In this document: positions 982-19,594 of the stretch, piece by piece
Layout of the letters: the number at the start of each line of letters is the position of its first letter
Position numbering within the stretch: position 1 is the first letter of the stretch
Assembly (NCBI GenBank): GCA_010031785.1
Contig: RGZA01000003.1
Span: 599 to 32,598 of the forward strand
DNA from: Alphaproteobacteria bacterium
Lineage (GTDB): Bacteria > Pseudomonadota > Alphaproteobacteria > UBA9219 > RGZA01
DNA: 32,000 bases
Direction: 5' to 3'
Notes under the pieces: generated by a model
The model's input: only the letters and a program-made list of their open reading frames with translations
What the model was told of the DNA's origin: nothing
The model's database searches: none
Translations under genes and position numbers: made by a program

Positions 982-2292
982 TTATTCCTTTTTGCTGCGC
1001 GCAAGTCGCAATGCTTTCAATTCCAAGAGGCGCGTTGCAATATCCTTCTCATGACCACGCGGGCTTGGCCGGTAAAACTCCTGCCTTACCATAGCATCGG
1101 GGAAATAATTTTGTCCTGAAAAAGCATCGGGCGCATCATGATCATATTCGTAGCCTTCTGCGTAGCCCTGTTCCTTCATTAATTTTGTCGGTGCATTTAA
1201 AATATGCTTGGGCGGCATCAGGGAGCCATAGCGCGCTGCCGCAGCTTTGGCCACACTCATCGCCACATAAGCCGCATTAGATTTTGGCGAAACTGCCAAA
1301 TAAATAACCAGTTGTGTAAGCGCTAATTCCCCTTCAGGTGAACCCAGCCGTTCATAAGCCTGCCAGGCAGCAATTGCTTGTGTAAGCGCTGCCGGATTGG
1401 CTAGGCCCACATCCTCAACCGCAAAGCGCGTAAGGCGCCGTGCAATATAATGCGGATCCTCCCCGCCTTCGGTCATGCGGAAGAACCAGTAAAGGGCTGC
1501 ATCCACATCACTGCCGCGCAAGGATTTATGCAGGGCGCTGATTAAATTATAATGACTATCCTGTTTCTTGTCATAAAGCGGTGCGCGCTTTTGCAAGCGC
1601 TTGATCAGCGCCTCCTTATCCAATATTTCTTTGGGCGGCGCGGTTAGTAAATCTTCGGCCAATGTAAGAAGATAACGCCCATCGCCATCGGCCATAGCAA
1701 TCAGTGCGGAACGCGCTTCATCGGTAACAAGCAGTTTCTTGCCAGTATTTTTTTCAGCACGCGCTAGTAATTCTTCCTGTGCGGCTTCATCAAGGCGGTT
1801 CAGCACACATACTTGCGCACGCGATAACAACGCGCCATTAAGCTCAAAGGATGGATTTTCGGTCGTTGCACCCACCAGTATAACTGTACCATTTTCAACA
1901 TAGGGCAAAAATGCATCCTGCTGCGCACGGTTGAAACGATGAATTTCATCGACAAATAATAGCGTGCCAATGCCCATATCATGGTTTTTTTCAGCCGTTT
2001 CGAAAATCTTGCGCAATTCCACAACACCCGACATCACAGCAGATACCAGCTCAAACCGCAGCCCGACTTCGTTCGCCAGCAAACGCGCAATCGTGGTTTT
2101 GCCGCAACCCGGCGGGCCCCATAAAATAATCGAGGCTAAATGTTTGGCCGCAACCATGCGCGCAATCGGGCCATCATCTTTGAGCAAATGATCTTGCCCG
2201 ATTACTTCGGAAAGAATTTTAGGCCGCAATGTATCGGCCAAAGGCCGTTGTGCTGGATTTTCAAACAAGGATGTTTCTTTTGCTGGGCTCAT
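982..2292 (-). CDS. rarA: replication-associated recombination protein A (AAA+ ATPase, MgsA/RarA family)
   Basis: 436 aa. Walker A GPPGCGKTT, Walker B LLFVDEIHRF, and a C-terminal MgsA-type helical domain (ALHKSLRGSDVDAALYW). The ATGA start overlaps the htrA stop. Confidence 0.9.
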   Translation of the reverse strand: MSPAKETSLFENPAQRPLADTLRPKILSEVIGQDHLLKDDGPIARMVAAKHLASIILWGPPGCGKTTIARLLANEVGLRFELVSAVMSGVVELRKIFETAEKNHDMGIGTLLFVDEIHRFNRAQQDAFLPYVENGTVILVGATTENPSFELNGALLSRAQVCVLNRLDEAAQEELLARAEKNTGKKLLVTDEARSALIAMADGDGRYLLTLAEDLLTAPPKEILDKEALIKRLQKRAPLYDKKQDSHYNLISALHKSLRGSDVDAALYWFFRMTEGGEDPHYIARRLTRFAVEDVGLANPAALTQAIAAWQAYERLGSPEGELALTQLVIYLAVSPKSNAAYVAMSVAKAAAARYGSLMPPKHILNAPTKLMKEQGYAEGYEYDHDAPDAFSGQNYFPDAMVRQEFYRPSPRGHEKDIATRLLELKALRLARSKKE

Positions 2293-3686
2293 CTCACCAC
2301 GACCGTGATGACATTACCGCCGCGATTAATGCTGATGCGCCACGCATTGGCAGAAAGTTTGAGCGCGGCTGTCACATCGCTCACGCTATGCGTTTCCTGA
2401 TTATTGATGCCCACAATAATATCTCCCGGTCGGATGCCAAGGCGCGCGGCGGCACTACCCTTGCTAATACTGAGCACAATCGTGCCTTCGCTATCATCGG
2501 GCAAGCCCAGATCTTGCGCAAGCGCAGGAGAGATATTAGCAATGCGTGCACCCGAAAGTGGCGTGGGACCCGTCAGGCTGATCTCGCTTTTGGTTACTTC
2601 CTTGGGTGCTTCAATAATTTTGACCGACACATCGCGCTTTTCACCCGCATGCAAAATGGTAAAGGTCAGCATGCTATTAATCGGTGCAGTTGCAGTGCGG
2701 TAATGCAGCCCCTGCTCATCATCAATATCTCTGCCATTAATCGCCAAAATCACATCGCCGACTTTAATGCCTGCCTCGCGCGCGGGGCTTTGTTTATGCA
2801 GCTCCCGCACAATCACGCCTGTTGGGTGATTAAGCCCAACGCTTTGCGCAATATCGCCAGTCAGCGTTTGCGCAGAAAGCCCAAGCCACCCGCGTACCAC
2901 CGCGCCGCCATGGCTGGCCGATTCAATCACGGTGCGCACAAGGTTGGCTGGAATAGCAAAACCGATGCCAAGCGAGCCGCCATCTTTGGAATAAATCGCC
3001 GATGGCACACCCACCAATTTTCCATCCGCAGAAACAAGTGCGCCGCCCGAATTACCGGGGTTAATCGCAGCATCGGTTTGAATAAAATAATTATAATCAC
3101 TGCCTGTAACGTCTGCTGCGCGCGCAACGGCTGAGATAATACCCATCGTCACGGTTTGCCCAACGCCAAACGGGTTGCCAATTGCTAGCACCACATCGCC
3201 GACTTGCGCATCATCGCTATCGGCCAATGCAAGCGTTGGGAAAGTTTCACCCTTGGTTTTTAATTTTAAAACTGCAAGATCACTGCGCTTGTCATCGGTA
3301 ATCACTGATGCTTCAAATTCACGGCGGTCCGAAAGTACAACAGTAATCTGGTCTGCGCCTTCAATCACATGATTATTGGTAACAACAATACCGTTTGCAC
3401 CCACCATCACGCCCGAGCCTAGCGAATTCTGCACCCGTTTTTGTGTGAGGCCTTGCGGCAATTGATTGCCAAAAAATTCACGAAACAGCGGATCATTCAT
3501 AAAGGGGGACATCAGGCGCTGGCGTACCACCGTTCGTGTATAAATATTTACAACTGCAGGCGCAACGCGCTTGATCACCGGCGAAAAGCTAAGGGCGATC
3601 TGTTGTTTGGATGTAGGAATTTCCTGCGCATAAACCGGCACACAGAAAGAAATTATTGCAATTACAATCAATAAACTTTCCGTCAT
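2289..3686 (-). CDS. htrA: periplasmic serine endoprotease DegP/HtrA family with two PDZ domains
   Basis: Catalytic triad contexts VVTNNHVIEGAD, DLAVLKL and GNSGGAL, followed by two PDZ-like segments. The start is placed at ATG 3686 (MTESLLIVIAIISFCVPVYA signal-like peptide). Alternative in-frame starts are 3719 and 3761 (GGTGAG 6 nt upstream). The track ORF reaching 3863 reads through a repeat element and is probably too long. Confidence 0.85.
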   Translation of the reverse strand: MTESLLIVIAIISFCVPVYAQEIPTSKQQIALSFSPVIKRVAPAVVNIYTRTVVRQRLMSPFMNDPLFREFFGNQLPQGLTQKRVQNSLGSGVMVGANGIVVTNNHVIEGADQITVVLSDRREFEASVITDDKRSDLAVLKLKTKGETFPTLALADSDDAQVGDVVLAIGNPFGVGQTVTMGIISAVARAADVTGSDYNYFIQTDAAINPGNSGGALVSADGKLVGVPSAIYSKDGGSLGIGFAIPANLVRTVIESASHGGAVVRGWLGLSAQTLTGDIAQSVGLNHPTGVIVRELHKQSPAREAGIKVGDVILAINGRDIDDEQGLHYRTATAPINSMLTFTILHAGEKRDVSVKIIEAPKEVTKSEISLTGPTPLSGARIANISPALAQDLGLPDDSEGTIVLSISKGSAAARLGIRPGDIIVGINNQETHSVSDVTAALKLSANAWRISINRGGNVITVVVR

Positions 3687-3837
3687 GCCCGCCCAGAAGG
3701 ATATCTTTGGGGCGGGCATCCACGAGTTTACTTCTTTTCTATCTTTTATTTTTTTGTACATTTTATACTCACCAAAAATAATAAAGTAAGTTCGTGGATG
3801 CCCGCCCCAAAGATATCCTTCTGGGCGGGCATGACGG
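3680..3837. repeat. 158-bp nested palindromic inverted-repeat element (46-bp perfect arms, 66-bp AT-rich spacer), MITE/RPE-like
   Basis: Arm 3680-3725 (ccgtcatgcccgcccagaaggatatctttggggcgggcatccacga) is the exact reverse complement of 3792-3837. Each arm is itself a hairpin (atgcccgccc / gggcgggcat around a GATATC core). Both strands therefore encode MPAPKISFWAGMT in the ORF track. Confidence 0.9.
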
Positions 3838-3892
3838 CATTTAGGATGAATATAGAACGCCACAAAAATGGGGCAAGAGTTTGGCTAGATTG

Positions 3893-4225
3893 TCAGGCCT
3901 TGATAATACCCGCATCAATCAGCTTGAGGCCAACAACACCAAGAATAATCAGCGCAATGCAGGCCAGCTTTGATACCGATACAGATTCGCCAAGATAAAA
4001 TACGCCAAGCAACAGCAGAAGCACCGAGTTCACGCCAATCCACACGGCATAGCCGGTGCCCATACCAATTGTTTTCATTGCAGTAGCCACAAAGAACGGG
4101 CCGGCAAAAATAAAGAACAGCGCCAAAAGACTTGGAACAAGTTTTGTAAAACCGCCATGGAGCTTAAGGATAAAGATCCATGCTACTTCGCAAAGCGCGG
4201 CAAGGATCATATAAAGCCAGGCCAT
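3893..4225 (-). CDS. sugE: SMR-family small multidrug/quaternary ammonium efflux protein (SugE-like)
   Basis: 110 aa with four predicted TM helices. The conserved membrane-embedded Glu lies in LCEVAW. GYAVWIGV and LGESVS blocks are typical of SugE/EmrE-family proteins. Confidence 0.85.
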   Translation of the reverse strand: MAWLYMILAALCEVAWIFILKLHGGFTKLVPSLLALFFIFAGPFFVATAMKTIGMGTGYAVWIGVNSVLLLLLGVFYLGESVSVSKLACIALIILGVVGLKLIDAGIIKA

Positions 4226-19559: not shown

Positions 19560-19594
19560 CCACATCGATCGATGTGGCGGCGGCTTATGCCGCC
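19560..19594. repeat. two adjacent GC-rich palindromes in the rpsC-rplP spacer
   Basis: An 18-bp perfect palindrome ccacatcgatcgatgtgg (19560-19577). Immediately after it comes the hairpin ggcggc-ttat-gccgcc (19579-19594). Confidence 0.8.

Follow-up and report, generated by a model that had tools for sequence, protein, structure and literature searches.

A 158-bp inverted-repeat element lies between a SugE-like transporter gene and the serine protease gene htrA in the stretch of DNA analyzed here (the window; 32 000 nt of contig RGZA01000003.1 from a member of the Alphaproteobacteria, with the whole genome denoted G000 below). We find that this element is very probably a head-to-head dimer of CGTC-1 repetitive extragenic palindromic (REP) units, belonging to the same class as the NTS/dRS3 repeats and RPE-6, which has displaced the ribosome-binding site (RBS) and the start codon of htrA. 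It is best seen as selfish or neutral DNA that re-wires translation initiation of htrA, and not as a dedicated regulator. The features of the element and its surroundings, given in window positions, are as follows.

3680..3837, no strand: whole element, probable head-to-head dimer (tags outward) of CGTC-tagged REP units, as judged from repeat structure, copy inventory and the published definition
3680..3725, plus: left REP unit with tag (C)CGTC, stem ATGCCCGC lengthened to 10 bp, an enlarged loop replacing the canonical GAAG, and tail CCA followed by CGA; proximal unit as seen from the minus strand of htrA, containing ATG 3719 and ATG 3686
3792..3837, minus: right REP unit, exact reverse complement of 3680–3725; the distal (5') unit on the htrA mRNA
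3711..3733, plus: inner arm GGCGGGCATCCACGAGTTTACTT; its partner 3784–3806 has GAACTT where 3711–3733 has GAGTTT
3734..3783, minus: AT-rich spacer (core), bearing GGTGAG (3773–3768) and ATG 3761–3759 on the minus strand
3849..3876, minus: promoter-like block TTGCCC-16-TATATT found by promoter scan, within a stretch conserved in five genomes, between the sugE stop codon and the element
2289..3761, minus: htrA (Do-family serine protease), taking ATG 3761 as the most likely start, with ATG 3719, ATG 3686 and TTG 3671 as further in-frame candidates
3893..4225, minus: SMR-family (SugE-like) transporter gene upstream of htrA, with its stop codon 55 nt from the element

Structure, genomic copies and family of the element

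A script check confirmed that positions 3680–3725 and 3792–3837 are exact reverse complements over 46 nt, and the inverted repeat grows to 3680–3733 and 3784–3837 (54 nt, 96%) if two mismatches are allowed. The 66 nt separating the perfect arms have a G+C content of 20%, compared to 48% genome-wide. Each outer end is formed by a hairpin, ATGCCCGCCC...GGGCGGGCAT, a pattern that occurred twice in the window versus 0.00 times in 100 shuffles. We found no target-site duplication, with flank matches across 31 copies of the element being no longer than those in shuffled pairings. A first-pass annotation, made from the letters of the sequence, had described the perfect arms around an AT-rich core, the hairpin within each arm and the lack of a duplication at the ends, and it was correct on all of these points.

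The same annotation had held that a lack of further copies would speak against mobility, an objection that fails upon searching the host genome (2.18 Mb in 294 contigs). BLAST of the element against its own genome gave 146 matches, and a fuzzy search with the 23-nt inner arm gave 70 matches that resolved into 32 clean inverted pairs. Among six apparently solo arms, four belonged to degenerate or widely spaced pairs and a fifth was found at a contig end, which brings the total to about 36 dimers. A canonical copy consists of (C)CGTC-ATGCCCGC-GAAG-GCGGGCAT-CCACGAGTTTACTT, followed by an AT-rich spacer of 28–86 nt and the inverted arm; the loop is instead enlarged to 15–19 nt, prolonging the stem, in the window copy as well as in a dozen or so further arms. 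About 22 of the 32 copies are located 0–36 nt past a stop codon, according to a rough count based on open reading frames (ORFs), and the window copy is located between unidirectional genes, 55 nt past the stop of sugE. One dimer of the family (C224:10640-11106) has a spacer of ~390 bp, on the opposite strand of which a small ORF is broken by an in-frame TAA. The twin palindromes at 19560–19594 of the window, also pointed out at first reading, were not of the CGTC-1 repeat family.

The window core at 3734..3783 is unrelated in sequence to the core of most other copies, and when all spacers were compared only 10 of 496 pairs were more similar than the shuffled maximum. With the cores being mostly unrelated, a dimer and its spacer are not simply copied together, and we rejected transposition of the whole dimer. 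An asymmetry between the arms, with GAGTTT in one and GAACTT in the other, recurs in nearly all copies and would yield G–U pairs in the RNA of just one strand. With respect to transcription of the neighbouring gene, however, the orientation was the same sense in 11 cases and opposite in 10, thus showing no strand bias, so that the asymmetry is inherited and not selected in RNA. A strand-specific RNA function based upon such G–U pairs was thereby rejected.

The CGTC-tagged REPs were defined by Di Nocera, De Gregorio and Rocco (2013, BMC Genomics 14:522; PMC3733652), with the CGTC-1 type having an unpaired 5' tag CGTC (or TGTC/CCTC), an 8-bp stem with A–T in its first two positions, a 4-nt loop and a short, likewise unpaired tail that fits CCA. 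The units are mostly arranged as head-to-head dimers with tags outside and partners 20–100 bp apart, having no transposase gene between them. They are intergenic, mostly near the 3' end of the upstream ORF and between unidirectional or convergent genes. The type was equated with Neisseria dRS3 and R. conorii RPE-6, and for Bradyrhizobium CGTC-1 repeats loops of other lengths were recorded (PMC3733652).

The unit arm found in G000, CGTC followed by ATGCCCGC-GAAG-GCGGGCAT and CCA, agrees well with this description. The tag was CGTC in 39 units of the family, AGTC in 27 and TGTC in 9, with the window arms reading CCGTC followed by ATGCCC. There were 70 exact stems ATGCCCGC/GCGGGCAT in the genome (10 bp in the window copy), 50 of which had a GAAG/CTTC loop. 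The tail was CCAC in 54 of 78 units, where the window reads GGGCAT followed by CCA. The 32 clean pairs had outward tags with partners at the expected distance, the spacers were mostly unrelated, and the location was mostly post-stop. Compared to the published class, the arm is in this lineage conserved for 11 nt past CCA (CGAGTTTACTT) and has the fixed asymmetry described above, and the stem-extending loop of the window copy and about a dozen arms also sets these apart. Judged from these sequence features, we classify the window element as a head-to-head CGTC-1 REP dimer with enlarged loops.

When the exact 23-mer was scanned over about 185,000 species genomes, it was found in at least 119 contigs. 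Among the matches listed, these came mostly from Bradyrhizobium, Xanthobacteraceae and other Alphaproteobacteria, and also from some Gammaproteobacteria, Betaproteobacteria, Planctomycetes and others. Nearly all of the matches listed had the layout GTCAT-hairpin-ATCCA...TGGAT-hairpin-ATGAC, and the paired hairpins in these contigs often differed by compensatory stem changes, showing that the hairpin itself, and not its sequence, is what is conserved. Contigs of the gammaproteobacterial genera Pseudofulvimonas, Lysobacter and Thermomonas (L052, L086, L110) had the 23-mer in tandem arrays with a period of about 136 or 246 bp, being clustered rather than dispersed REP dimers. In Rfam, nothing but miRNA hairpin models of plants and animals was matched, and these below threshold (e.g. 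60.7 bits versus a gathering score of 211); we rejected them as generic matches to a long hairpin and not a family.

The htrA start region and other signal-peptide genes

The protease ORF at 2289..3863 (minus) is open through the entire element, and the three candidate htrA starts that had been named within it, ATG 3761, ATG 3719 and ATG 3686, are all in its frame. The downstream gene encodes a Do/DegP/HtrA-family protease (TIGR02037, 456.6 bits with a cut-off of 416) with Trypsin_2 and two PDZ domains, and the upstream gene encodes an SMR transporter (PF00893) having SugE as its top NCBIfam match, under the cut-off of that model; the names first given to the two genes can hence be kept. Also as first described, the sequence GGTGAG, a possible Shine–Dalgarno (SD) motif, reads at 3773–3768, i.e. 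6 nt ahead of ATG 3761, and both strands encode the same peptide. The latter occurs because the arms are perfect inverted copies, whereby the plus-strand ORF 3798..3998 opens with MPAPKISFWAGMT, the same 13 residues as in the minus-strand reading. This plus-strand ORF (66 aa) runs antisense into sugE and is almost certainly spurious, an annotation artefact made by the repeat and typical of this repeat class.

The comparison of the sugE–htrA spacer with relatives lacking the element, as had been proposed for its study, proved informative. The synteny of sugE and htrA was kept in four congeners and the element was absent from the spacer in all four, so that conservation at the site, the other objection raised in advance against mobility, was not seen. 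The spacers of the five genomes were then aligned with the element removed from G000. All five genomes of the genus contained a conserved block, GCC.AA..TCTTG-N17-TCTATATT, which at 3849–3880 of the window (CTTG-N17-TCTATAT) may resemble the alphaproteobacterial heat-shock sigma-32 consensus CTTG-N17-CYTATNT. In the four congeners the block was followed by GGATGGAGG, with a GGAGG RBS, and a TTG or GTG start opening MTRLF.... In G000 this SD and start were missing, with the 158-bp element in their place. The empty sites in four congeners indicate that the element was inserted here and now most likely supplies the htrA start. A gain in this lineage is more parsimonious than four losses, and a precise loss recreating an RBS and a start is implausible. 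A sequence in the 5' untranslated regions of the relatives, GTGGATGGAGGCTCC...TTGAC, was considered as a REP in decay on account of the GTGGATG and TGAC that it has in common with the arm, but it cannot form the hairpin and we regard the likeness as chance. A native origin of the core was similarly rejected, as the spacer alignment revealed no similarity between the core and the native leader.

The hydrophobic core of the HtrA signal peptide (LLIVIAIISFCVPVYA) begins only 3–4 codons past the end of the element, and ATG 3686 is supplied by the terminal CATGACGG of the element. The htrA start is now most likely GGTGAG-N6-ATG 3761 in the core, in which case a cleavable N-terminal extension would result. 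Rickettsia palindromic elements (RPEs) are known for in-frame insertions within protein-coding genes. The element studied here belongs to the same repeat superfamily as RPE-6, has arms that are stop-free in two of three frames and leaves the htrA frame open throughout. It differs from the RPEs in being located at the very 5' end of the gene, replacing RBS and start, instead of in an internal surface loop, and in that the added residues would leave with the signal peptide.

At four more loci, at least, the repeat was found to end 0–4 codons from a signal-peptide core without any SD or charged n-region in between. At C263:4859-4987 (L013) the element adjoins the codon-1 position of a BamB lipoprotein gene (PF13360), which in relatives starts MVRLFIVLL...TGC. 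Here the terminal ATG of the element is out of frame, a GTG inside the arm after AAGGAAG-N7 is a plausible in-frame start, all other in-frame starts before the hydrophobic core are also within the element, and a single downstream ATG would give too short a signal peptide. The SH3_4 periplasmic protein at C114:12343-12504 (L003), which starts MRRK/MLRK in two relatives, would in G000 start either as MT and the hydrophobic core from the ATG of the element or as MRIENKKK... from the spacer. The signal-peptide protein gene at C252:8735-8880 (L012) has an element common to G000 and the congener G002 only, and three genomes without it start MK/MNR/MRN. The fourth, a signal-peptide protein gene at C2:28871-28996, has AAGGAG-N8-ATG in the spacer and a frame open through the arm. 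Empty sites of the kind seen at htrA were found also at the BamB and SH3-protein genes, and the proteins of congeners lacking the element have ordinary, charged N-termini. Read toward the gene, two of the three arm frames are stop-free, so that an open frame says little by itself. Initiation within the element is argued more strongly by the lack, downstream of it, of both n-region charges and an SD.

Based upon these loci, we tentatively suggest, as a possibility to which we give less than even chances, that in this lineage REP dimers placed over the initial codons of genes whose products are exported serve as replacement initiation regions, having found a 'safe harbour' in a peptide that is cleaved off and providing a duplex as a shared handle. 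Initiation would then occur at an SD and a start inside the AT-rich spacer or arm, with the hairpin being translated as n-region. This may apply to HtrA, the BamB lipoprotein, the SH3 periplasmic protein and at least two others. Since the signal peptide is removed after export, the mature protein would be free of the added residues, which could explain why such insertions are tolerated.

RNA structure and the regulatory reading

RNA of the minus strand over the element folds at -119.5 kcal/mol (z = -16.6) as one hairpin. When long-range pairs were forbidden, two local hairpins formed with -26.3 (3680..3725) and -26.9 (3792..3837) kcal/mol at 37 °C, and about -24 kcal/mol at 42 °C. In partition function calculations between 25 and 50 °C, the pairing of ATG 3686 and ATG 3719 never fell below 99.9%, with unpaired probabilities of at most 0.001, and nothing would consequently melt in the physiological range. 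The unpaired probabilities of 3775–3770 (UUGGUG, overlapping the SD by 4 nt) and ATG 3761 went only from 0.48 and 0.44, respectively, to 0.55 and 0.57 over the same temperatures, and thus hardly depended on temperature.

The first-pass annotation had given, as its second reading, that the distal hairpin terminates sugE while the proximal hairpin occludes the htrA start, forming a structure- or temperature-sensitive switch of a heat-shock protease. Two of the candidate starts, ATG 3686 and ATG 3719, are indeed buried in the GC stem, and htrA, a stress gene, is preceded by a conserved promoter-like block. We nonetheless consider this reading very unlikely. There was no terminator-like site within 3550–4000 and no U-run after either hairpin, and the promoter-like block is located upstream of the element, between it and the sugE stop codon; together with the lack of melting, this indicates that the element is neither a sugE terminator nor a thermometer. 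Known RNA thermometers have weak, mismatched stems. Furthermore, copies of this element occur at some 36 unrelated loci, most of them following a stop codon, and it is absent from htrA in the four congeners.

The Correia elements of Neisseria are transcribed inverted repeats that form long RNA duplexes, can alter the expression of downstream genes and are cut by RNase III. A 54-bp duplex, as formed by the arms of the window element, is a plausible RNase III substrate and suggests that its RNA may be similarly processed.

Candidate partner enzymes and the spread of the repeat

The NTS and the Ssn-related motifs (SRM) were described together with the Ssn nucleases, which are GIY-YIG enzymes acting on single-stranded DNA (Nat Commun 2025;16:2388; PMC11893778). 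The NTS consensus is CGTCATTCCCGCGMAVGCGGGAATCYRG, SsnA is a single-domain GIY-YIG protein that cuts the motif only as single-stranded DNA and on one strand only, and ssn genes are typically flanked by the repeat (PMC11893778). The arm of G000 equals the NTS consensus apart from its last base and a single compensated stem pair, and the canonical arm fits the SRM pattern, which had 77 matches in the genome versus 3 in a reversed control. Whereas the REP identity of the element and the displacement at htrA are seen in the genome data themselves, the link between Ssn and the arm in this lineage is drawn from literature and from gene neighbourhoods in relatives. A role in the control of transformation has been shown in Neisseria.

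Besides UvrC, G000 has eight small GIY-YIG ORFs, i.e. Ssn-like single-domain genes (C26:4854, C125:2203, C273:18986, C244:7103, C232:10219, C48:2538, C102:730 and C242:4253). In seven of these the flanks form an inverted pair of CGTC-type hairpins, the stem being particular to each gene, while C125 was readable downstream only. The flanking stems of the paralogues included ATCCCGCA, ATTCCCGC, ATGCCAGC, ATCCCGGC and ATCCCCGC, and several of these REP variants form small families of 4–18 units, compared to 78 units of the ATGCCCGC family. In the case of C244, the longest ORF begins inside the repeat (MPAKAGI...). None of the eight genes in G000 was flanked by the ATGCCCGC/CCACGA arm.

Genes flanked by this arm were found in related genomes. 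The congener G002 (G002:C2) has an ssn gene between copies of the identical arm, CCACGAACTTACTT included, in G006 (G006:C31) two ssn genes are flanked by the arm, one of them with the compensated stem ATGCCGGC, and in G005 (G005:C41) an ssn gene is likewise flanked by it. In G007 (G007:C39) the exact arm is found on the upstream side, about 20 nt from an ssn gene. The Ssn proteins of G002, G005 and G006 form a supported clade (97/96) without any member from G000; the protein of G007 was outside the tree sample and is 65% identical to the G002 query. The congeners had 0, 0, 1 and 7 arm matches and three genomes of sister genera had 34–72. Among 40 relatives, the four with a member of the Ssn clade (at least 65% identity) were exactly the four with at least seven arm matches (7, 51, 72 and 34), a co-occurrence that is not independent across relatives and should be read as a pattern and not as a test. 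G000, with 59 arm matches in this count and no member of the clade found, is the exception. Its cognate Ssn was either lost or is located in an assembly gap, as repeats are a frequent cause of breaks in assemblies.

Several observations weigh against the proposed identity and history of the element. The window loops, of 19 nt counted from the 8-bp stem (15–19 nt), are not the 4-nt loops of a strict CGTC-1 repeat, and the enlarged-loop arms do not fit the SRM regular expression, exceeding its N(0-5) loop limit. The cognate Ssn gene was not found in the G000 assembly, where the best tblastn matches, with 56–58% identity, were to the paralogues. The G000 site syntenic to the ssn gene of G002 holds two unrelated small ORFs, and with the cognate gene not found any present mobility of the repeat in this genome would be hypothetical. 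The direction of gain at htrA is derived from parsimony and the implausibility of excision. With regards to the start codon, ATG 3686 is also in frame and TTG 3671 is also possible. As for the two ORFs at the REP-ssn-REP site of G002, located at G000:C234:2170-3015, they encode a membrane protein of ~195 aa and a Pro-rich protein of ~60 aa.

Mobile elements of other types were also considered. Regarding the first reading of the first-pass annotation, a MITE (miniature inverted-repeat transposable element) or RPE-like mobile insertion, the RPE-like part is essentially borne out by the about 36 copies, the absence from the site in four congeners and the agreement with CGTC-1, equated with RPE-6. 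A classical MITE, being derived by deletion from an insertion sequence, ending in terminal inverted repeats and moved by a DDE transposase, would account for the long inverted ends, the many copies and the patchy distribution, but it is highly improbable in view of the absent target-site duplication and of cores that vary among the copies, where the members of a MITE family would have a common interior. Moreover, each end is a self-contained tagged hairpin, like REPs that are found singly or in other arrangements elsewhere, and the genes found between such arms are ssn genes and not transposase genes. The Correia elements are, for comparison, MITEs of the terminal inverted repeat type, with TA duplication and a conserved interior.

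A second type of mobilization, by a REP-associated tyrosine transposase (RAYT) acting on a REPIN as for GTAG-type REPs, seems hardly probable either, although the genome encodes a RAYT-like protein and the inverted doublets resemble REPINs. The RAYT-like gene (G000:C235:10792-11653; L031 1380-2290), encoding 209 aa, matched NF047646 with 69 bits (cut-off 80) and also had Y1_Tnp matches. Its flanks carry another palindromic doublet, CAGTGACAGTTACTTTTT-N5-inverted, which with 31 units (about 15 doublets) makes up a second, REPIN-like repeat family of the genome. No ATGCCCGC hairpin was found on the contig of this gene (C235), and no RAYT was flanked by CGTC repeats in any species of the defining paper (PMC3733652). 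The GTAG-type REPs, REPINs and bacterial interspersed mosaic elements associated with RAYT in E. coli and Pseudomonas are similar to the present repeat in being tagged hairpin doublets that are intergenic, lack target-site duplications and have a repeat-flanked nuclease gene, while having another tag and an enzyme of the HUH Y1 family instead of the GIY-YIG enzymes of the CGTC type. The resemblance of the present system to NTS/Ssn lies in the arm being close to the NTS consensus, the SRM fit of the canonical arm and the GIY-YIG genes flanked by inverted repeat copies, and the difference lies in the cognate Ssn clade not being found in the G000 assembly. The least probable of all explanations is that the element is ancestral and was selected as a cis-regulatory structure of htrA, its likeness to dispersed repeats being incidental. 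Although the htrA frame is kept open through the whole element, the structure is absent in all four congeners, where htrA has a normal RBS and start, and near-identical arms are found at 30 or more unrelated loci.

The proposed course of events, with a CGTC-1 REP dimer displacing the htrA start region, can be summarized as follows. By analogy with the published system, CGTC-tagged hairpins would be recognized in single-stranded DNA by small GIY-YIG Ssn nucleases, the genes of which are themselves flanked by repeats. In this lineage one dimer came to lie downstream of the htrA promoter and ahead of the hydrophobic core of the signal peptide of HtrA, thereby displacing the native GGAGG site and the TTG/GTG start. 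The entire element would now be transcribed as the 5' end of the htrA mRNA, with translation most likely beginning at the accessible GGTGAG-N6-ATG 3761 and reading through the proximal REP arm. The n-region of the signal peptide would thereby become longer by about 25 residues, and with this peptide cleaved off after export the mature HtrA would be unchanged and the insertion tolerated.

The class of the element is known biology and the copy in the window is ordinary as a member of that class, but it presents a clean natural case of a REP dimer replacing the RBS and start codon of a gene. For annotation it means that gene callers will pick among four starts of htrA and, on the other strand, will report spurious 'MPA..AGMT' peptides. 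Why such insertions survive is suggested by the five loci at which the repeat adjoins a signal-peptide core and, should our tentative reading of them be true, an RNA duplex of ~50 bp would give secretory genes a shared post-transcriptional handle, e.g. for RNase III. Finally, four repeat-rich relatives carry the Ssn clade beside this arm while G000 is repeat-rich with the enzyme not found in its assembly, a contrast that constitutes a small natural experiment on whether Ssn nucleases drive the spread of REPs.

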